This document shows, piece after piece, positions 7,090 to 38,246 of a DNA stretch of 38,246 nucleotides. Origin of the DNA: a virus (taxonomy: Duplodnaviria > Caudoviricetes). The translations under genes were made by a program, and so were the position numbers. The notes under the pieces were generated by a model, which did not search any database, was not told where the DNA came from, and was given only the letters and a program-made list of their open reading frames with translations. The DNA lies in the IMG/VR virus record IMGVR_UViG_3300037310_000419, positions 1 to 38,246 of that record, one strand, 5' to 3'. Position 1 is the first letter of the stretch. Every line of letters begins with the position of its first letter.

Positions 7090-7542
7090 ATGAATCCGCG
7101 CAAAGCCAAAGTAACCCACATCGAAAAATGGGGAAGCTACCTTTCGCGGCGCGATGGTGGGATGCGCTGTCACTATTGCAGCATCCCCCTCATTCGTGGC
7201 TTCAAAAACAATCTCGAAGCCATTGAATCTCTCAAAAAAAATGGCTTCGGCCTGGCAACAGTTGACCATATCGTGCCGTTGTCAAAAGGCGGCAGCAACG
7301 AACCCTGGAATATGGTTTTAGCCTGCCTCGATTGCAACGAAGCCAAAGGCGATAGCAGCTATCGCCAGTTCCTGAAAACCATCCGTCTCAAGAAAACGAT
7401 TGGAGCTTATCCATGTCACAAGGAAACATCATCCCGCTTCACGAAGCCCGACAAATTGCCGCCGACTTCATGGAATACATTCACGGAGTCAGCCACTTCG
7501 CCGAAGTCGCTGGCAGCGTTCGCCGCCTCAAACCCAGCGTGA
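7090..7542 (+). CDS. HNH endonuclease
   Basis: CHYC...TVDHIVPLSKGGSN..WNMVLACLDCNEAKG. Confidence 0.9.
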   Translation: MNPRKAKVTHIEKWGSYLSRRDGGMRCHYCSIPLIRGFKNNLEAIESLKKNGFGLATVDHIVPLSKGGSNEPWNMVLACLDCNEAKGDSSYRQFLKTIRLKKTIGAYPCHKETSSRFTKPDKLPPTSWNTFTESATSPKSLAAFAASNPA

Positions 7543-8087
7543 GCGATATTGATATTGTGATTCAACCTCACAACACAGCCGCCATCTGGAATCGCATAGA
7601 TGTGATGCTCGATAACGGCACCGTTCGGAAAGCCATTTATGGCGATGGTAAAACCCGTTGGGGCGAAACCTATCGCGGCTGCCTTTTCATGGGCATGAAA
7701 GTTGAAATTCATCTCTGCACGCCCGAAAATCGCGGTTACATCTATTGGCTTTATACGGGCGACGGCGACAAAAATCAGTATGTCATGCGCAAACTCATCG
7801 AGCACCAGAGCCTGATTCGCTTTCATGATGGCAGCGCCTGGCACGTCAGCTATGACAAAAATCACCCTAAATTTAATGTCGGCTTCGGCTATGCCAAACT
7901 CGCCAGACTCGCCGTTCCCGATGAGCAAACCTTTTACACCTTAATCGGGATGCCCTTCATCGCGCCGCACAACCGCAGCGAAATCACTTATCGCCGTTAT
8001 CTTGAACGCGCCATCAATGTCCCGCCGCTCGAAGCCATCCAGCTTCGCTATGCCGAAGAAGCTCAGAAGCAGGGGCGTTTGTTCTGA
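7413..8087 (+). CDS. DNA polymerase X/beta-like nucleotidyltransferase
   Basis: AGSVRR....SDIDIVI motif; LYTG resembles PolX YFTGS. Confidence 0.8.
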   Translation: MSQGNIIPLHEARQIAADFMEYIHGVSHFAEVAGSVRRLKPSVSDIDIVIQPHNTAAIWNRIDVMLDNGTVRKAIYGDGKTRWGETYRGCLFMGMKVEIHLCTPENRGYIYWLYTGDGDKNQYVMRKLIEHQSLIRFHDGSAWHVSYDKNHPKFNVGFGYAKLARLAVPDEQTFYTLIGMPFIAPHNRSEITYRRYLERAINVPPLEAIQLRYAEEAQKQGRLF

Positions 8088-9793: not shown

Positions 9794-10909
9794 ATGGCAG
9801 CGAAAAAACGATACACAGCAGGCAGCTTGTTTAGTGGTATAGGTGGGATTGATTTAGCCTTTTCATTGGCCGGCTTTGATATTCTCTTCCAAGTGGAAAT
9901 CGACGAGTTTTGCCAGAAAGTTCTAGCCAAGCATAGTAAGGAGTATTGGCCTAATGCAGAAATATTTGCCGATGTTCGAGCCGTTGGGCAGCACAATCTC
10001 CCCACCGTTGATATTCTCTTCGGGGGATTCCCATGCCAGGACATATCCAACGCTGGAAAACGAGAGGGCTTGGTTGCTGGCAAGCGTTCTAGTCTCTGGT
10101 TCGAGTTCGCCAGAATTATTAGCGAGCTTCGACCTGGAATTGTGCTGCTGGAAAATGTCGAAGCAATTACCACGCCACGAAAAAAAGAAGATGGGCAACT
10201 TTCACCGCCAGATATGGCAGTGGTTGTTGATACGCTGGCCTCAATGGGGTACAGCGCGAGATGGGGAATTATCGCGGCTTCTGATGCCGGCGCTCCCCAC
10301 CAAAGAAACCGTTGGTTCTGTTTGGCCCACACCGAACGCAGAGGATTACTATCTGCGGCAACCACCATCAGAAGAGCAAACCCATGTGACAAAATCAGGG
10401 ACATTGAAACTGGATTCGGGGAACAAGTCGCATGTTCGCCTCTCTCAAACAGTGATTTACTACCAGAACAAGAAGGATTGGCACACGCCAATCGCCAACG
10501 ACGCCCTGAAATCAGGGGATATAGAGCAAAAGCGCGAAAACGGCTTATCAGCGCAAGTGCTTTGGGCGTTGCCCAAAGCACGGGACGCAAAAGGTTCATC
10601 AGGCGACCGCTTCCACAATTCTTGTCTTCCCAAGCAAGTGGGCGACAAGGGAGTGAAACAAGAGGCAGCACTAAACCCAGAATGGGTAGAGATGCTTATG
10701 GGATTTCCTCCAAATTGGACGGCGCTGGATTAATGGCGCATCGATGGCCGGCGCGTCCGAACGAGCTACAGCATGATTATGAACCGCCGCGCCTGGTTGG
10801 TGAAATCGTCGATCGACGAAACAGAATTAAGTCTTTGGGCAATGCAGTAGTGCCACAAGTAGTTTATCCAATCGCAATCGAAATAATGAAGCTGCTGGAA
10901 AGAGAGTGA
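9794..10909 (+). CDS. C5 cytosine DNA methyltransferase (large/alpha chain)
   Basis: Motifs I LFSGIGG, IV GGFPCQD, VI ENV, VIII QRNRWF, X LGNAVVP; motif IX absent in frame. Confidence 0.92.
   Translation: MAAKKRYTAGSLFSGIGGIDLAFSLAGFDILFQVEIDEFCQKVLAKHSKEYWPNAEIFADVRAVGQHNLPTVDILFGGFPCQDISNAGKREGLVAGKRSSLWFEFARIISELRPGIVLLENVEAITTPRKKEDGQLSPPDMAVVVDTLASMGYSARWGIIAASDAGAPHQRNRWFCLAHTERRGLLSAATTIRRANPCDKIRDIETGFGEQVACSPLSNSDLLPEQEGLAHANRQRRPEIRGYRAKARKRLISASALGVAQSTGRKRFIRRPLPQFLSSQASGRQGSETRGSTKPRMGRDAYGISSKLDGAGLMAHRWPARPNELQHDYEPPRLVGEIVDRRNRIKSLGNAVVPQVVYPIAIEIMKLLERE
9954..10733 (+). CDS. Nested +1-frame ORF: C5-MTase small/beta chain (TRD-like repeats plus motif IX)
   Basis: WPTP/WHTP/WALP repeats and LNPEWVEMLMGFPPNWT; true start uncertain (for example ATG 10284). 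Confidence 0.72.
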   Translation: MQKYLPMFEPLGSTISPPLIFSSGDSHARTYPTLENERAWLLASVLVSGSSSPELLASFDLELCCWKMSKQLPRHEKKKMGNFHRQIWQWLLIRWPQWGTARDGELSRLLMPALPTKETVGSVWPTPNAEDYYLRQPPSEEQTHVTKSGTLKLDSGNKSHVRLSQTVIYYQNKKDWHTPIANDALKSGDIEQKRENGLSAQVLWALPKARDAKGSSGDRFHNSCLPKQVGDKGVKQEAALNPEWVEMLMGFPPNWTALD

Positions 10910-14550: not shown

Positions 14551-14865
14551 TCACCATTTCCAGTCTAAATCTTCCCAAAAACCCTTGTTTGGGTTGATAA
14601 ACCATTGCGATTTATGAACTTGTTTCCCACTGCCAGAAAAGCCATTCCAGCCAAATGTAGCCGCGCAATTGAAAATATTCACAGTCTCATTTGCTTTTGG
14701 CTGATGTGCAAGCACGATTGCCATCGCCCGAAATCGTTCATTCGCGTTCTCAACCCGCGCTCTCAAAGCATCAAGCGATGCCACACCAACAAAATCGCCA
14801 GATCGAACCAATCGCTCTTTGCGTGAGCCATCATAATCCTTGATGCAAAGCCAGAACATTACCAT
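14551..14865 (-). CDS. Hypothetical protein
   Basis: Tight operon packing. Confidence 0.6.
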   Translation of the reverse strand: MVMFWLCIKDYDGSRKERLVRSGDFVGVASLDALRARVENANERFRAMAIVLAHQPKANETVNIFNCAATFGWNGFSGSGKQVHKSQWFINPNKGFWEDLDWKW

Positions 14866-15794
14866 CGCTCCCCGCTGGCGACACGATTCAGCGCCTTCTC
14901 AACACCATCCACCATCTTCGCCAGACTATGCTCATCAGCAACCCATTCGCGCATTTTCTTCGCATCAAGCCATTGCACATCGTTTGCAGCATCCAGCATT
15001 TCAGCCACATCCGCGCAAATAAAGCCCGAAACGCAGTCCTTTACGTGCGAAGCGTTTCCGCTTGTTTTCCAATCCAGCACAATCGAAGGACAGCCGCACG
15101 CAGCAGCTTCCAGCAAAACCCGCCCACCAGCATCAACCCGTGCTGGATGAACAAGCGCCTTCGCCGTATGCAGCAAATCATAAAACCGTGCCTTTTCATG
15201 GATTTCGCCGCGCCAATTCGGAACATTTTCCGTTGTCAGCAACTGCCCGAAGAAGAAAAATTCTTCGCCGCGCGGCAATCGCTGAAAGAATTCCAGCGCC
15301 AAATCATACCCCTTTTGCGGATGGATTTTCGCAGCATACATCCAGAATCGCCGTGCCTTAGCCGAACCATCGAGGCCAACAGGATGAGGGATAGCATCAA
15401 TATCAATTCCAACCCTCACAATTTCGCCGCCATAGCGCGATTGCATCACCTCAGTCCCTGAAATCGTGTTGGGGGGGCGAAACTTACATTCCCAATCCAT
15501 CATAAAATTGACGATTTTCCCAAAATCAGGCTTTTCGTAACTCACCTGATGGGTATGGCTGCAATCTAACCAGGCATCCACGCTTTGGGTATCCAGCATC
15601 GCAGCGCGGCTGATTTCATCCTGAGCCGTGACAATTGTCACGCCATCGAGCGCCGAACCCTGCCCCGCGTGCAAAATAATCTCGTGGCCTTTGGCTTTCA
15701 ACCCCTTTGCCAAATCAATCACGAGCCGCCCCAAACCATGACTGCCACTGTCAACAGTCGCCATCCGCGTATCGCTCAAAATCCCGATTTTCAT
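14859..15794 (-). CDS. Glycosyltransferase family 4 (GT-B)
   Basis: HGLGR..GHEI, HPQKG, DAGGRVLLEAAACGCP. Confidence 0.88.
   Translation of the reverse strand: MKIGILSDTRMATVDSGSHGLGRLVIDLAKGLKAKGHEIILHAGQGSALDGVTIVTAQDEISRAAMLDTQSVDAWLDCSHTHQVSYEKPDFGKIVNFMMDWECKFRPPNTISGTEVMQSRYGGEIVRVGIDIDAIPHPVGLDGSAKARRFWMYAAKIHPQKGYDLALEFFQRLPRGEEFFFFGQLLTTENVPNWRGEIHEKARFYDLLHTAKALVHPARVDAGGRVLLEAAACGCPSIVLDWKTSGNASHVKDCVSGFICADVAEMLDAANDVQWLDAKKMREWVADEHSLAKMVDGVEKALNRVASGERW
15627..15642. promoter_or_regulatory. 16-bp palindrome CGTGACAATTGTCACG, copy 2
   Basis: Perfect copy inside the glycosyltransferase gene. Confidence 0.7.
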
Positions 15795-17242
15795 TTTCCT
15801 ACATCCTCAGCCGTTTCAAGATTTTTATCCCATCCCGAACGCAACTCATCAAGCCACTTATTATCTACTAAGAGTTCGGCATCCTGAACACATTTAGTGC
15901 TGCAATAAATCCCTCCGATGATTCTCGATACAGCGGCAGAAGGTTCAGTAGAAATTTTTCCACAATGGCTGCAAGTCCATTCGCGCTTTTTGCTCCCTTC
16001 CTCATCGCTATGGGGAAGGGTTGGGGATGGGGGTAAAACATGGAGCGCCAACCGTGCCTCTTTGCGCCGTTTTTCTTCATCCCGATTTCGCGCAGCCTTG
16101 AAAATCGCTGGCCTCATGTATTTTTCCCAAACCAACTGGGCGTCATACTGCATAGCGAATTCTCGTGCCGTATCGCGCATCGCCTGGTTATTCTTCGTTT
16201 CCAATGCCGCTTCCAATCCCTTGAAAATCAGCGAAGGCCGAATCCGCGCTTGTTCACTGCCTTGCAGCGTAAATTCCATATCATCGAAGGGGTCTACTTC
16301 CAGTCGCCAACCAGAGCCGCAAAGTTCCCGTTGGGCGCTAAAATCCGAAACAATCACAGGGCATCCAGCCGCTTGCGCCTCAATCACAGGAATGCCAAAG
16401 CCTTCCCCGCGAGATGGAGCCAGCAGCACATCAGCAGCGTTGTAAAGCGTGTTCATCGTGTCAGGCGAATACTGATTCATCATGTAGCGATAATCGTCTG
16501 GCAAACGAACATGCTCCGAACTAACCCCATGAAACGCCATCAATTGAGGAATATCAAGCCCATGGTTGCCAGGGGTATCAAACGGCTGAGTATGAAGATG
16601 CAAAATGCTTTTCGGATATTTCTTGACGAACGCCGCCCACGCCTTAATCACTTCGGGGATGCTCTTCCTGTTGGGAAAACCCTTATTCGCTGCCACCATC
16701 GCCACAGCAAAGGTATCCTTATCAATACTCAGCTTGCGCCGCGCTTCTTCCCTGTCGATTGGCTTGAAAATACCGGTATCCACGCCATGAGGAACATAAT
16801 CCGCGAAAATCCCCGCGTTGTGCATTTCCTTCAGCCCGAATTTGCTCATTGCCCAGATACTTTTGCAGAAATGCAGCCGTGCCTTCACACTGGGCGTAAT
16901 CGGGCTATGGTCAATCGGCACCCAAAACGTAGCATCCGCCGCCTTAATCGAATTCGCCGAAAGCACCCAAATATCCTGCAAACAAATATAAATATCGGGC
17001 CTGTGCATTTGGGCATGAGCCGCCATCAAATCATCACCATAAGCATGAAAGCCACTGGGCAAAATTGTCAGATCTGCTTGCGGCCTCAACATCGCCCCGT
17101 GCAAGCCATAATGCGCGGCGATAATCACGCCATGCCCATCAGCAATCATCTTCTTTGTGAAAATATCCGTTTGGTTTCCGTATCCGCTCGGTGCCCAGGG
17201 CGCGTTCGATTGCCACAAAATCTTTAATTTGCGTTCTTCCAT
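15791..17242 (-). CDS. Glycosyltransferase family 4 with C-terminal Cys4 zinc finger
   Basis: PSGYG, VPHGVD, PSRGEGFGIPVIEAQAAGCPVI; CSHC...YCSTKC; AAGGA RBS favours ATG 17242. Confidence 0.92.
   Translation of the reverse strand: MEERKLKILWQSNAPWAPSGYGNQTDIFTKKMIADGHGVIIAAHYGLHGAMLRPQADLTILPSGFHAYGDDLMAAHAQMHRPDIYICLQDIWVLSANSIKAADATFWVPIDHSPITPSVKARLHFCKSIWAMSKFGLKEMHNAGIFADYVPHGVDTGIFKPIDREEARRKLSIDKDTFAVAMVAANKGFPNRKSIPEVIKAWAAFVKKYPKSILHLHTQPFDTPGNHGLDIPQLMAFHGVSSEHVRLPDDYRYMMNQYSPDTMNTLYNAADVLLAPSRGEGFGIPVIEAQAAGCPVIVSDFSAQRELCGSGWRLEVDPFDDMEFTLQGSEQARIRPSLIFKGLEAALETKNNQAMRDTAREFAMQYDAQLVWEKYMRPAIFKAARNRDEEKRRKEARLALHVLPPSPTLPHSDEEGSKKREWTCSHCGKISTEPSAAVSRIIGGIYCSTKCVQDAELLVDNKWLDELRSGWDKNLETAEDVGK
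15993..16033 (+). repeat. REP-like hairpin plus G-rich repeat R4 (in-frame in the glycosyltransferase)
   Basis: CTCCCTTCCTCATCGCTATGGGGAAGGGTTGGGGATGGGGG. Confidence 0.7.
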
Positions 17243-17298
17243 GCTCAAATCCTTACATTTTCATCTATCTTTATTGTATGGGGATTGAAAAGGGGAAT

Positions 17299-29539: not shown

Positions 29540-29580
29540 AATGCACCTACTGACAAGATGTCAAAATGATTCCCAGCGAA

Positions 29581-29619
29581 TCCCCTCCTTGCGAAGCGGG
29601 GAGGGGTTAGGGGTGGGGA
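29581..29619 (+). repeat. REP-like hairpin plus G-rich repeat R6
   Basis: TCCCCTCCTTGCGAAGCGGGGAGGGGTTAGGGGTGGGGA, abutting the portal stop. Confidence 0.8.
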
Positions 29620-31029: not shown

Positions 31030-31050
31030 ATCATTCCTCCAATTTCCATC

Positions 31051-31087
31051 TCCCTCCTTGCGAAGCGGGGAGGGTTAGGGGTGGGGA
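31051..31087 (+). repeat. REP-like hairpin plus G-rich repeat R7
   Basis: Near-identical to R6; abuts the terL stop. Confidence 0.8.
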
Positions 31088-33867: not shown

Positions 33868-34349
33868 GCCACCTCATATTTCATCGGTAGTTCCAGTTGA
33901 ATCATCTTATCATCCTGCCAATAATTCTCCTCAGCAGGAATCTCCCAGCGCCAATCTTTCTTCTCGCCGCGCTGCTGTGGCAGGCCAATCCACGCATCAT
34001 CAACCACGCGCCCAAACCAACCCACACCGAAACGCATCTCAACATCCACGCGGTTTTCCCCACGCAGCGTAATCGGCTCATAAACAAAACGCCGTTTCCC
34101 TTCCTGCCAGGGAAGAAATAGCGCAATCTTCTTTTCGCTCACAAATAATTCATGGAGATTTTCAGGATGCCGCGCAAAAAACGCCTTTGTCGCCGCCTCC
34201 TGCTTCTGAAAATGGCTTTCCTCATCGGCCTTCGCCATCCGCAAAGCCTCTAAATAGGGGTTCTCGAAATCGCGCTTCGACTTCGCCTTAAACAACTGCG
34301 AATTTCGCAGCTCTGCTTCCCGTTCATAAACGGTTTGGGGGATGCCCAT
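33864..34349 (-). CDS. Hypothetical protein
   Basis: 161-aa ORF. Confidence 0.65.
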   Translation of the reverse strand: MGIPQTVYEREAELRNSQLFKAKSKRDFENPYLEALRMAKADEESHFQKQEAATKAFFARHPENLHELFVSEKKIALFLPWQEGKRRFVYEPITLRGENRVDVEMRFGVGWFGRVVDDAWIGLPQQRGEKKDWRWEIPAEENYWQDDKMIQLELPMKYEVA

Positions 34350-34382
34350 ACAATCAAATCCATATCTTCCCCCGAAGATGTT

Positions 34383-34907
34383 TTACTTTGTGTTTTCTCT
34401 TGCGACTTTCAAAACCTTGAAATTCTGTTCAAGGCTGCCACTTTCCCAAGCCTTATGCCGCGCAAATGTCATAAATTCAATGAGTGCCGTCTCATGCGTC
34501 TCAAAATACACATCCAGTTTGACAGCTTCAAGGTATGGCATCACAGATTCCATAAGCAGTTCCATTTGCTTCATGCTTGGTTTCTGCCCGATTTTGATGA
34601 GTGCTTCTGTGTAACGCAAACGCTTGTAAACTTTTTCGTCTGACAGAATCGCGTCTAAAGCCTCATTTACAAGCCTGACACCATCTGGCACTCCACGAAC
34701 AGTATTTGATGCACCTTGCGAATCCTCAATATTGTGTGCTGCTTTGATAATATCAATAACAAAGGCAAGAGATTTTCCTTCATAAAGATACTTTTCCGCC
34801 AATTCACCGAAAAATCCTTTGGCGTATTCTTCCTTGCCGATACTTTTGTAGGTTTTCGCACATTCAAGAATCGCAGCATTAAGGCGTTCACGTTCTGCTT
34901 CACTCAC
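34383..34907 (-). CDS. Hypothetical protein
   Basis: 174-aa helical ORF with GTG start. Confidence 0.6.
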   Translation of the reverse strand: MSEAERERLNAAILECAKTYKSIGKEEYAKGFFGELAEKYLYEGKSLAFVIDIIKAAHNIEDSQGASNTVRGVPDGVRLVNEALDAILSDEKVYKRLRYTEALIKIGQKPSMKQMELLMESVMPYLEAVKLDVYFETHETALIEFMTFARHKAWESGSLEQNFKVLKVARENTK

Positions 34908-35124
34908 TCTTCCCTCTTCCGATAAACATTCGCGCCATTAATTGAAACCGATTTTACGCAATCAGGCATCTTCCCCGCCTGAATAATGGGCGCGTTCTGG
35001 TGCATCCTGCCATCCTCATCTGACATTGAGTCATCTCCTTGTAATCCAGCGTTTCACTCAAAGGGGTTCTTAGCCCCGACTGCATAGGACGCTCCTTCGG
35101 CTATTGACCATTCTTGTCTCTTAC

Positions 35125-35133
35125 ATTATATCA
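35125..35133 (-). promoter_or_regulatory. Leftward extended -10 promoter
   Basis: TGATATAAT on the minus strand, heading the leftward arm. Confidence 0.55.
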
Positions 35134-35139
35134 CTAAAT

Positions 35140-35168
35140 TTGCATTTTTAGCCGCTTTGTTCTACAAT
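35140..35168 (+). promoter_or_regulatory. Rightward promoter for the candidate sRNA
   Basis: TTGCAT-N17-TACAAT. Confidence 0.6.
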
Positions 35169-35174
35169 AAAATT

Positions 35175-35280
35175 GTAAGCTTACGAAACCCAACGGCGCG
35201 AACGCTGCTAGTTCCCCCGACAGCAATCCAGCCGATGTACTTGATGCCCAGTCCCGCGCCAACGTGGGATTTTTTGTTTT
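35175..35280 (+). ncRNA. Candidate trans-acting antisense sRNA
   Basis: Between a promoter and a terminator, no convincing ORF; contains TGTACTTGATGCC, complementary to the integrase leader. Confidence 0.5.
35252..35280 (+). terminator. Intrinsic terminator
   Basis: TCCCGCG-CCAA-CGTGGGA followed by TTTTTTGTTTT. Confidence 0.75.
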
Positions 35281-35284
35281 ATAC

Positions 35285-35300
35285 CGTGACAATTGTCACG
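35285..35300. promoter_or_regulatory. 16-bp palindrome CGTGACAATTGTCACG, copy 4
   Basis: Perfect copy upstream of the 35358 gene. Confidence 0.7.
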
Positions 35301-35357
35301 CCTCATGCCGTTTTTGTGTTATATTAATCCCAACATCAAGCACAAAAAGGGAAAATT

Positions 35358-35861
35358 ATGAAACCCGCCTTTTTCACCATTTTAATTTTCATTCTTGGGC
35401 TTTTCACCGTTCTCGCTCAGGACTCCGCCTACTCCGCCTGTGACGATTTAGCCGAACGCCTCACCACCATTCAGCAAAACACCGCCGCCCTCGATGCCAG
35501 CAGCGAAACCCTCTCCGAAGAAATTGCTTCTCTCCAGACGGAATTAAGTGCCCTCGATTCCGCCTGTCGTGGTCTAAGCTTCAACAGCGATGATGAAGGG
35601 CTTCAACCCGTTATTGGGCCAATCCTTTTGGAAGAAGGGGTGTATCGTTTAACATTTACCACTGATGGCTTCGGCGCTATTGATGGCACAATGCTTGATG
35701 GCGACTGCGAACGAGAAATCAATGTCATTTTTAATGAGGGACGCGGCGATGCTGAAGACGGTGCTCAACAGGTTCTGCAATTAGACGAAGATTGCGAATT
35801 CCTCTTAGAATTCAGCAATATCACCGAAGATTGGACATTCACAATCGAAAAGCTCCAATGA
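35358..35861 (+). CDS. Secreted acidic protein (possible superinfection exclusion/lysogenic conversion)
   Basis: Signal peptide ending VLA/QD; very acidic; next to the repressor. Confidence 0.7.
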   Translation: MKPAFFTILIFILGLFTVLAQDSAYSACDDLAERLTTIQQNTAALDASSETLSEEIASLQTELSALDSACRGLSFNSDDEGLQPVIGPILLEEGVYRLTFTTDGFGAIDGTMLDGDCEREINVIFNEGRGDAEDGAQQVLQLDEDCEFLLEFSNITEDWTFTIEKLQ

Positions 35862-35863
35862 AG

Positions 35864-35879
35864 CGTGACAATTGTCACG
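35864..35879. promoter_or_regulatory. 16-bp palindrome CGTGACAATTGTCACG, copy 5
   Basis: Perfect copy 2 bp after the stop of the 35358 gene. Confidence 0.7.
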
Positions 35880-35981
35880 CCATATACAATAAAAACTGTC
35901 ACTGGTTAAGGCCATTTGACAAAGGGGATGGGGGCCTTTCAACCCCCTTCCCAACCCCATTTACACCCCTCATTAGCAAAA

Positions 35982-35997
35982 TAGAATATACGTTCTA
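35982..35997. promoter_or_regulatory. Possible LexA (SOS) box
   Basis: TAGAATATACGTTCTA, one mismatch to AGAAC-N4-GTTCT. Confidence 0.4.
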
Positions 35998-36065
35998 GCG
36001 ATTTTCTAACAAAACTGTAACATGCTTTTGGGCGTAAATAGTGGTAAAATGTTTGTATACAAAGT

Positions 36066-36093
36066 TTGACAATTTCGTTCAAATGGCTATAAT
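36066..36093 (+). promoter_or_regulatory. Repressor promoter
   Basis: TTGACA-N16-TATAAT; TTTGTATACAAA palindrome at 36052-36063. Confidence 0.75.
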
Positions 36094-36108
36094 TTTACTA
36101 AATGGGGA

Positions 36109-36384
36109 GTGAATATGGTAAAGCGCGTAGTCAATCGCGTTGCTGAACTCATATCCATCAAAAATCGGAGAGATAATCGCCGATGGAAAATCGAAGAAAT
36201 TGCCGAAGCAACTGGCTTAATGCCAAAAACGGTTCATGCCTGGCTTCACAATAGCGTTCGCCGTTTTGACGAAAAACAGCTTCTGGCATTTGCCACATTT
36301 CTCGAAGTGGAAGTTAGCGAGTTACTGACAACACAAGAGGAAGATGAAAACTTGGGGAATATGGAAGCCGCGATACCTGCCTAA
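36109..36384 (+). CDS. XRE/Cro-CI-type HTH repressor
   Basis: IEEIAEATGLMPKTVHAW...FATFLEVEVSELL. Confidence 0.85.
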   Translation: MNMVKRVVNRVAELISIKNRRDNRRWKIEEIAEATGLMPKTVHAWLHNSVRRFDEKQLLAFATFLEVEVSELLTTQEEDENLGNMEAAIPA

Positions 36385-36535
36385 TCGAGAAAATTGTCGG
36401 GCATCGCGGCGGCATCAATTACAAACAGGGAGTACAAAGCCCTGAATGCACCTTAACATATGAATAGCACAGTCGCCAGAGCCATAAGGACGTCCTAATA
36501 TAGTTCACCTTGCCCATGACGAAGAGGGGAAAGCT

Positions 36536-36578
36536 GTGGACGCAGAGAGACTTGAACTCCCGACTTCACGGATTAAAA
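36536..36578 (-). other. attP core: 3' half of a tRNA (probably Lys-UUU)
   Basis: Minus strand TTTTAA-TCCGTGAAGTC-GGGAG-TTCAAGT-CTCTC-TGCGTCC-A; no 5' half; overlaps the integrase stop. Confidence 0.8.
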
Positions 36579-37543
36579 CGTTTTTCGTTACTTTTGGGGG
36601 CGTGCAATGCCCCCGAATTCTTGACCTCTTTTTCCACTGGCAGAGGCTTGCCTTCTTCGCCAAAAGCCACTTCGCGGATAGCCTTCTCCAGCGCTTCATC
36701 ATCGGGATTGCCATAATGCTTGGCATAAACGTTATCAGAAATCCCCATGCTCTTTGCAGCAACATGCGTTGGAATTTTATGAACACGCAGTTGCACGCCC
36801 TTTCGATGCCTTAGCGAATGCGTTCCCCAACTGCCAATCCCCGCTTCGATACAACGTCTCCTGAAAAATTGGGATAAGGCAGCCGCCGAAACCTTCGCGC
36901 CCTTCTGATGAAAAACATAATCGCCAGCTTCGGCTTTCTGGGCAATCTTCCACTGAATCAGCGCTGCTTTTGTCGCCTTGCCAAACCAGACTTTGCGGGT
37001 TTTCTGCCCTTTCTCAGTCACAGTGGCAAATTGCAGCTTCAAATTTACGTCTGACCAGCGCAACCCCACAGCTCCGCCGCGCCGCGCCCCACCATCGCCC
37101 AGGAACATAATCAGCGCCAACGCACGCGCATATTGCTTCGGCTTAAGCAGTGCCAAATCCTGATAAAACTTCACCATTCTCTGAAAAAGCGCATCGGGCA
37201 TTGCTTTCTGAACACTGTTCCCCTCATTGGCCTGTGGCACGGCTCGTTTCCGAACGCCATCAATCGGCGCTTTGGAAATCAAACCCGTTCGCACGGCCCA
37301 GCGGAAGAACGTCCCAACATGCTTGATGAATTTGTTCACGGTATGGACAGATTTCACACCTGGGCGCTTTTCATAATTCTGAACAGCGCGAAGCACATCA
37401 AATGACTTGATTTCTTCTAGGGGCAAAGAAGGGGAAACATACGACATGAAGACAACGAGGTCTTCCTTGTAGGTTCGGCGCGTGGTCGGGATGTACTCTC
37501 CTAAAAATACATCAACCGCCTCGCCAAGCGTGACAGTTTTCAT
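36566..37543 (-). CDS. int: Tyrosine recombinase/integrase
   Basis: SAM-like N-domain, GARR, EKG, HSLRH, C-terminal Tyr; AAAGGA RBS before ATG 37543. Confidence 0.9.
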   Translation of the reverse strand: MKTVTLGEAVDVFLGEYIPTTRRTYKEDLVVFMSYVSPSLPLEEIKSFDVLRAVQNYEKRPGVKSVHTVNKFIKHVGTFFRWAVRTGLISKAPIDGVRKRAVPQANEGNSVQKAMPDALFQRMVKFYQDLALLKPKQYARALALIMFLGDGGARRGGAVGLRWSDVNLKLQFATVTEKGQKTRKVWFGKATKAALIQWKIAQKAEAGDYVFHQKGAKVSAAALSQFFRRRCIEAGIGSWGTHSLRHRKGVQLRVHKIPTHVAAKSMGISDNVYAKHYGNPDDEALEKAIREVAFGEEGKPLPVEKEVKNSGALHAPKSNEKRFNP

Positions 37544-37554
37544 GGTGCTATTCC

Positions 37555-37587
37555 TTTGTACTTGATGCTTCTGTTTGTACTTGATGC
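37555..37587. repeat. Tandem 14-bp direct repeat TTTGTACTTGATGC in the integrase leader
   Basis: Copies at 37555-37568 and 37574-37587; related copies at 35236 and, inverted, at 36410. Confidence 0.8.
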
Positions 37588-37637
37588 CGATTCCAATTGT
37601 ATTCAATTTTTTGTTCTATGAAAGGGAACTAATAAAA

Positions 37638-37898
37638 ATGATGGCCTTAACCGAAAGTGAATTCTCAGTTCTGAATCTTTTTTATGTCACCAAATGGAAG
37701 AATCTTAAGCGCATCTCGCCATTTTTCATCAGGCGATTTGAAGCTTTAGGCTTCATCGAAATCCACGCAAACAACACCCATGCCCGAATCACGCCAGCAG
37801 GCCGCGCCGCCCATCGTGAAACTCACATCCTTCGCGGCAAAGGCGAAGCCTCCCCCTGCCTTGTCGAAGAACTCAACCGTTTCAGCCGTATGAAATAA
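37638..37898 (+). CDS. Small winged-helix-like protein, first gene of the early arm
   Basis: LTESEFSVL...FEALGFIE...RITPAGRAA. Confidence 0.6.
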   Translation: MMALTESEFSVLNLFYVTKWKNLKRISPFFIRRFEALGFIEIHANNTHARITPAGRAAHRETHILRGKGEASPCLVEELNRFSRMK

Positions 37899-37914
37899 TC
37901 TTTTAAGGAGAAAT

Positions 37915-38246
37915 ATGAGCAACTTACGCAGAAATCAACGCGGCACATGGGCAAAACTTATCATATGGCTTCGCAAGCGCAATAAAGGTGTTCTCAATCT
38001 TTATCGTGCCAATCTTTATCGTGCCAATCTTTCGAGTGCCAATCTTTCGAGTGCCAATCTTGAGAGTGCCAATCTTGAGAGTGCCAATCTTGAGAGTGCC
38101 AATCTTGAGAGTGCCAATCTTTCGAGTGCCAATCTTGAGAGTGCCTATCTTTATCGTGCCAATCTTTCGAGTGCCAATCTTTCGAGTGCCTATCTTTATC
38201 GTGCCAATCTTTATCGTGCCAATCTTTATCGTGCCAATCTTGAGAG
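37915..38246 (+). CDS. Pentapeptide-repeat protein, 5' part
   Basis: AAGGAG at 37905-37910, ATG 37915, [41 protein letters not shown]...; about 230 aa when joined. Confidence 0.88.
38006..38246 (+). repeat. 15-bp tandem repeat array (continues across the join)
   Basis: Same units; 8 unique units at 38006-38125, then the overlap. Confidence 0.95.
38126..38246 (+). repeat. Terminal direct repeat (assembly circular overlap), right copy
   Basis: Identical to 1-121. Confidence 0.9.

Follow-up and report, generated by a model that had tools for sequence, protein, structure and literature searches.

Tyrosine integrases that lack the N-terminal arm-binding domain raise the question of how a phage keeps them off. 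To our knowledge, such integrases work without a directionality factor; therefore, something must keep them off. We considered this question for the lysogeny region of a virus (Duplodnaviria; Caudoviricetes), IMG/VR record IMGVR_UViG_3300037310_000419. The window, that is, the whole analysed stretch of 38,246 nucleotides (nt), is a complete circular phage contig with a 121-nt terminal repeat and 49% GC. A preliminary description of this DNA had proposed an antisense RNA acting in trans on the leader of the integrase gene (int). We put at about one in two the probability that the int leader is silenced by RNA pairing, via a small RNA (sRNA) of ~100 nt and probably also via the strand beyond the phage attachment site (attP). 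The features on which this estimate depends are the following.

35140 to 35168, plus strand: predicted sigma70-type promoter of the sRNA, TTGCAT-17-TACAAT (from the sequence, scan score 9/12; putatively active)
35175 to 35280, plus strand: predicted non-coding RNA of ~100 nt (from folding and a terminator scan; putative start site)
35236 to 35248, plus strand: S0, the predicted seed TGTACTTGATGCC, with a mean unpaired probability of 0.64
37555 to 37589, minus strand: S1 and S2, two 14-nt copies in the int leader (37587-37574 and 37568-37555), with seed duplexes of -22.5 and -19.1 kcal/mol
36410 to 36470, no strand assigned: S3 region, an 18/19 copy of the int leader (36410-36428) and two 9-nt blocks (36431-36439, 36462-36470) in the same order as in the leader
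35334 to 35344, plus strand: S4, a degenerate copy (10/11) just 5' of the Shine-Dalgarno (SD) sequence of the secreted-protein gene 35358-35861 and placed at that gene's predicted +1
36566 to 37543, minus strand: tyrosine integrase of 325 amino acids (aa) without the N-terminal arm-binding domain (Pfam/PHROG; profile alignment)

The promoter and the terminator of the sRNA unit were found where they had been described. The promoter diverges from a predicted late -10 near 35127-35132, which faces leftward. Similar hexamer-spacer stretches are present in four genomes of the host order; integrase relatives are found in genomes titled Anaerolineae and Aggregatilineales and in 34 of 382 genomes of that order, therefore the host is probably from that order. 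The terminator has a hairpin and a U-tract and is one of two within 34000-38246. The unit was said to hold no convincing reading frame, and this is correct, as its sole frame has 56 aa and a TTG start, begins inside the promoter and crosses the terminator. In the predicted fold, a stem-loop (35194-35234, with a 13-nt C-rich loop at 35208-35220) is followed by a linker (35235-35249), the terminator stem (35250-35271) and the U-tract. S0 occupies this 15-nt linker with 1 nt to spare on either side.

The exact 13-mer at 35236-35248 recurs at 37576-37588, and a 12-mer lies at 37557-37568. These copies had been noted before, together with the SD sequence AAAGGA at 37557-37552 and the TACAAT -10 at 37601-37596, and all of them were confirmed. 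Two further copies had been missed, one at 36411-36423, which is the one-mismatch 13-mer of S3, and one at 35334-35344. S1 starts at the predicted +1 of int, and S2 abuts the SD sequence. The start of int is the ATG at 37543, and three homologues at 62-82% begin at the same residue. Therefore, the leader from the predicted +1 amounts to roughly two motif copies and the SD sequence; its repeat is 14 nt long with a period of 19 nt. A short seed has duplicated complementary targets of 13 and 12 nt in the int leader and of 12/13 at S3.

At up to two mismatches the 13-mer has five matches in the window against a mean of 0.78, and none of 100 shuffles reached five. In 4 of 20,000 shuffles, the promoter-terminator unit shared an exact 13-mer with the int/early intergenic region. 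The five close copies all fall in non-coding DNA between 35.2 and 37.6 kb; four have the sense of the local transcript, and S0 alone is reversed, i.e., antisense. When the seed linker was paired with 60 start regions, int ranked first (-22.5 against -13.1 kcal/mol for the next). Genome-wide, the best trans window of the seed was also the int leader, and S3 was the third. Cofolding of the sRNA with the int leader gave a free-energy change (ddG) of -21.0 (0 of 300 shuffles), and folding predicts that the leader is largely open. The reading by RNA pairing is supported because S0 fills the linker, int is the best of 60 start regions and only S0 is reversed. The sequences, their orientation and their statistics are observed, as are the identity of the boxA and the architecture of the integrase described below.

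The copies could also be by-products of local duplication, through slippage in the leader and a template switch between the leader and S3, plus one chance match, and have no regulatory role. This would agree with the 72 of 1,000 shuffles in which some pair of the 20 intergenic pieces shared a 13-mer, with the int leader being by eye ~19 nt longer than in several relatives, and with the fact that nothing is kept in relatives. Such an origin does not account for five copies with matching boundaries, all non-coding, in regulatory positions and within one 2.4-kb region, and we consider it very unlikely.

In the favoured mechanism, the ~100-nt RNA from 35175 would bind the two leader copies by its 13-nt linker and so keep ribosomes from their binding site. 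Another antisense strand, stronger than this one, lies just beyond attP (36470-36410). In the circle, the int message would end in this strand, which would fold back on the leader of the same molecule. In the prophage, the strand would lie downstream of the restored host tRNA-Val, and the promoter of that tRNA would drive its transcription. A further possible partner of the sRNA seed is read-through RNA from a helix-turn-helix (HTH) gene, just before a hairpin and a boxA. The outcome would be to keep whichever state exists, circle or prophage, with no choice of plasmid. The transcripts, start sites, pairings and effects in this scheme are all predicted from the DNA.

The preliminary description also paired the sRNA loop TAGTTCCC (35209-35216) with GGGAACTA (37624-37631) in the ribosome-binding region of the first early gene. 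The 8-nt match is real and in place. As a second seed it is ordinary by chance, since it ranks 4 among 60 start regions at -12.9 kcal/mol and is equalled in 169 of 1,000 shuffles; it was therefore dropped. The best partner of the loop is the start region of gene 34349 (minus strand), with a 9-nt complement at 34367-34375 (-17.7) and an 8-nt complement of the linker at 34341-34348. The two sites stand in parallel order, which is wrong for antiparallel pairing; the match is probably due to chance.

A number of results weigh against the sRNA. Its fold is no more stable than those of shuffled sequences (minimum free energy z -0.44 to -1.14). It has no match in Rfam at gathering, and there are two unrelated weak matches at E<=10 within 34800-37800; nothing of the C4 and CI families, which had been cited as precedents for this unit, matched it. 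Blastn gave short partial matches only, in 18 of 382 genomes. A covariance model built on the one sequence recovered no sequence but its own from 98 sources (next E 0.03); it gave two weak matches within reading frames in 151 genomes and none in eight related phage records. An exact 19-mer of the sRNA was absent from IMG/VR, and a 17-mer had 18 unrelated matches; no homologue was found among annotated phages and plasmids. The duplex of S4 with the seed is weak (-11.1 kcal/mol); a match of the S4 type in any of 59 leaders occurred in 18 of 1,000 shuffles. Reads of one DNA run, possibly the window's own source, contained no attL/attR joint, which also counts on this side. The same reads had no variants at the motif sites.

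Relatives add to these points. Those with DNA comprised 11 viral, 2 genome and 6 metagenome loci (the last from a scan of 18 of 64 parts), together with 3 of 401 and 34 of 382 genomes, all 26-44% identical. The counts for leader/post-att complementarity and for boxA leave out five duplicate loci and the loci with too little flank. Complementarity between the leader and the post-att strand was found at p<0.05 in 1 of 39 (Fisher p 0.80), and no covariation of sRNA seed and target was found among these relatives. As they are only 26-44% identical, the missing covariation does not refute RNA pairing. Closer integrase homologues (four of eight matches, at 61-82%) lie on contigs of 1.3-3 kb, and a single-protein scan of IMG/VR gave no close integrase relative. 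The best 80 of 462 terminase relatives have no lysogeny module in common with the window, and a palindrome scan of 78 loci gave no related phage.

We also scanned relatives for seeds beside terminators, using the 20 nt before each terminator and a rough gene caller. Of 112 non-coding terminators in 14 relatives, one passed, in L085/G768, where the linker has complements in the leader of int and in three more leaders. The layout is familiar, with copies at the +1 of int and of the secreted gene and a reversed copy beside the terminator (0 of 4,000 shuffles). Among 334 terminators in 20 further elements, which partly overlap the first set, one scored 9 and none higher. It turned out that the L085/G768 (L251, L252) motif, CTCTG(T/A)GGAA...TTAT, is bipartite, with 17 matches on both strands, 12 of them non-coding, and a second conserved half downstream; its copy at the int +1 is degenerate. 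It is probably the parS or operator of that phage. Being a dispersed motif, it was ruled out as covariation of the whole seed. Since it gives the same layout, DNA sites can mimic the pattern, and this, too, speaks against pairing in the window.

Alternatively, a phage protein may recognise the 13-15-mer as an asymmetric site in DNA; the winged-helix product of the first early gene is the most likely candidate. Such a protein would repress int and the secreted-protein gene at +1 and would bind near attP, and the promoter-terminator unit would have another role.

37638 to 37898, plus strand: first early gene, predicted winged-helix protein (single-sequence model, pLDDT, i.e., predicted local distance difference test, 71)

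The protein has no Pfam or PHROG match. Its best matches are of MarR type at E 7e-3, which is weak, and there is none at E<=0.001; according to the model, it is a candidate DNA binder. That it is encoded beside the repeats fits a protein site, as does the dispersed motif of L085. S1 and S4 each open at a predicted start site, and ~110 bp separate S3 from the att core. No G-U wobble occurs among the internal deviations of S2-S4, and the four sense copies all extend into an AA that finds no partner in the seed; both facts favour a protein site over an RNA seed. The operators and stoperators of Cluster A mycobacteriophages are 13-bp asymmetric, non-coding and oriented with transcription (PMC9283540; here and below, papers are cited for the passages concerned), and in the window four of the five sites are in the transcript sense and one is reversed. 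TorI, a recombination directionality factor (RDF) and repressor, represses intS (PMC2951348). In contrast to the >20 sites of L5 or, genome-wide, of Cluster A phages and to the 17 of L085, the window has only five sites in four loci, all in one 2.4-kb region, with none in the early or late operons. Its 89-aa HTH protein has no second domain, and one copy is reversed inside the RNA unit. A protein site leaves unexplained why this one reversed copy falls exactly in the RNA linker, and also the ~47-nt multi-block likeness between the leader and S3; the arm-less integrase gives arm or RDF sites no role. We regard the protein site as doubtful, yet deserving serious attention. The antisense RNA against the int leader is the most likely single reading, as had been proposed; no homologue and no covariation were found for it, and beside it the protein-site alternative survives.

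Three more features lie at attP and beyond it.

36535 to 36573, minus strand: predicted attP core, the 3' half of tRNA-Val(CAC), overlapping the int stop codon; 37/39 identical to tRNA-Val of genome G001
36426 to 36458, plus strand: hairpin (36426-36444), then boxA GCACCTTAACA (36448-36458), pointing toward attP and antisense to int
36066 to 36384, plus strand: perfect promoter TTGACA-16-TATAAT, then an XRE-type HTH gene (36115-36384) that probably encodes the repressor; read-through toward attP is likely to originate here

The int stop (36566) is followed by the core (36573-36535) and then by the S3 element (36470-36410), which is distal to int and is separated from it by integration. The likeness of S3 to the leader goes well beyond one site (0 of 20,000 shuffles). 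In the minus strand of S3, ~36 nt complement the int leader in full, with its SD sequence (duplex z -5.1), and cofolding of this strand with the leader gave a ddG of -28.8 (0 of 300 shuffles). The plus strand of S3 would serve as a target of the seed. Between the att core and S3, the tRNA strand has no strong hairpin; its best 40-nt window is at -10.8 with no U-tract. No exact attB was found in 251 genomes at E<=1e-12. In the relative L079, ~13 nt just past the att core are complementary to its own int start-codon region (p 0.07), possibly a weaker post-att antisense.

A more far-reaching form of RNA silencing, which we judge unlikely, is that integration creates the silencer. The host tRNA-Val promoter would read into the phage, and a ~36-nt antisense trailer would lock the arm-less int; in the circle, the sRNA and the int fold-back would do so, while a borrowed rRNA boxA would carry transcription across attP into parAB and the early genes. 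If the int leader is indeed silenced by RNA, in part by a trailer of the host tRNA that arises only on integration, this would answer in a new way the question of how arm-less integrases are kept off and would amount to a compact, testable state sensor. None of the titles and abstract openings found in searches of the open-licence literature deals with silencing of a phage integrase by a trans sRNA or a tRNA trailer.

In the host-order genome G583, four of the five matches to GCACCTTAACA precede 16S or 23S rRNA; therefore, the motif is the host's boxA. As in rRNA antitermination, it stands behind a hairpin and is strand-specific. A boxA after the int stop on the anti-int strand is present in 12 of 42 relatives (L079, L080, L082, L084, L085, L087, L088, L095, L096, L097, L117 and L128), with none on the int strand and none inside int, and in 10 of the 12 a hairpin of -8 kcal/mol or better lies 5' of it. 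The plus strand lacks a TAnnnT hexamer between int and the first early gene, and from the HTH gene to this early gene it has no terminator. In the simplest reading, transcription from the strong 36066 promoter would pass attP under boxA protection, traverse int in antisense and enter the early and parAB genes, and in the circle only. In Tn916, circle-only read-through across the attachment site reportedly takes place; likewise, a promoter on one side of att would here reach genes beyond it only in the circle. Unlike Tn916, this is a phage, and the proposed read-through is antisense to int and leads to early, parAB and other genes. The conserved hairpin and boxA aimed across attP in Anaerolineae phages with int and parAB are better supported than the sRNA, and they suggest circle-only expression of the early and parAB genes across the phage family.

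Could this HTH read-through RNA be the main target of the seed? The sRNA would then act at S3, aborting the Nus-protected transcription across attP into the early operon in the manner of P4 CI RNA, and the copies in the int leader would be secondary. The hairpin-boxA on the anti-int strand in relatives, the absence of a plus-strand TAnnnT and terminator and the rank of S3 as the third-best seed window agree with this; P4 CI causes transcription to end early at seqA/seqC (PMC4825925). The seed duplex at S3 is weaker than that at S1 (-16.3 against -22.5), with a central C-U mismatch; after integration the read-through no longer reaches the early genes; and no such seed was found in the boxA-carrying relatives. 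We give this alternative little credence.

We then return to silencing of int by RNA pairing and to its effect. Positions 18-284 of the integrase profile align to XerD 20-287, so that the two are collinear from the N-terminus. The lack of an arm-binding domain argues against arm-type sites, and on this alignment the motif copies were rejected as such. In arm-less systems, Int alone does both reactions, and the Int level sets the outcome (PMC3694055); this is a reason to keep the int message tightly controlled. Silencing an arm-less integrase would stabilise either state and would hold an integrated prophage equally. Therefore, the choice of plasmid over integrated lysogeny, which had been attached to the antisense RNA, does not follow and is unsupported. 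The presence of parA beside int is the family norm, with parA matches in 12 of 19 loci and 15 of 20 elements, including elements within long chromosomal contigs. Phages BPs and Brujita likewise have an Int without the arm-binding domain, direction set by the Int level and integration as the switch (PMC3694055); here, in contrast, attP lies outside the repressor gene, and control is proposed at the RNA level.

With respect to known systems, the proposed one would work like P4 CI or P1 C4 combined with a sib-like, att-dependent element, and it is no member of those families. The C4 antisense RNA of P1 and P7 is a small phage RNA with a short seed and duplicated targets in lysogeny control. The P4 CI RNA likewise is a small phage RNA that uses a short seed and duplicated short targets (seqA/seqC) in the control of lysogeny (PMC4825925). 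Unlike both, the present unit is without an Rfam or sequence match and has its own promoter and terminator instead of being processed from the target transcript. Its main target would be the int leader, on the opposite strand and 2.3 kb away, and not a replication or antirepressor operon. A second independent pair of seed and target, loop against GGGAACTA, was not borne out. Sib of phage lambda acts through a local hairpin cleaved by a nuclease. Like the strand beyond attP, sib lies beyond att and distal to int, and its link to the int message depends on integration (PMC2951348). In contrast to sib, the present element complements the 5' leader of int with its SD sequence, has no strong local hairpin on that strand and would be read from the host tRNA promoter after integration.

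The other features of the region concern repression and partition. The order in the lysogeny region is: late -10, sRNA unit, palindrome, secreted-protein gene, palindrome, HTH gene, hairpin-boxA, attP, int (reverse) and winged-helix gene. The early genes, including parA and parB, run on the plus strand from 37638 across the circular junction, and the virion genes are on the minus strand.

37596 to 37606, no strand assigned: int -10 TACAAT (37601-37596) under the near-palindrome TTGTATTCAA

A perfect twin of this palindrome, TTGTATACAA, lies at 36053-36062, before the HTH promoter. These two, TTGTAT(A/T)CAA (36053-36062 and 37597-37606), are the sole non-coding sites among eight matches at <=2 mismatches. 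As the pair at the HTH promoter and the int -10, they are likely candidate operators of the repressor, separate from the 13-mer. That the XRE repressor has its own palindromic operator candidate was counted for the RNA reading of the 13-mer.

The parABS system named in the preliminary description was recovered as well, with ParA (AAA_31), ParB (ParB_N) and five perfect 16-bp palindromes; the latter are candidate parS sites. A degenerate copy of the parS-like palindrome (13/16) lies over the int start codon at 37529-37544, and ParB could also repress int. A site resembling a LexA box (35983-35996, one mismatch to a Gram-positive-type consensus) covers the -10 of a second promoter, at 35960-35987, which lies 5' of the HTH gene. 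Control of the sRNA promoter by LexA was rejected as unsupported, because that promoter is not among the ten box-like sites found with the consensus. REP-like (repetitive extragenic palindromic) repeated hairpins are present at 29540-29619 and 31030-31087, and also at 35860-35983, the last matching other contigs of the source run. A pentapeptide-repeat gene spans the circular junction (37915-38246 and 1-482); its number of repeats is uncertain, as the assembly ends inside the gene. The window also encodes two glycosyltransferases, inside the virion operon, a C5 DNA methylase and a protein with weak matches to DNA polymerase beta (14859-17248, 9794-10909, 7413-8087); the last of these proteins is common to many relatives. 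In many relatives (L080, L081, L085, L093, L095), a second gene of 370-510 aa, absent from the window, is divergent from the HTH gene, and in L085 it encodes a tyrosine recombinase.

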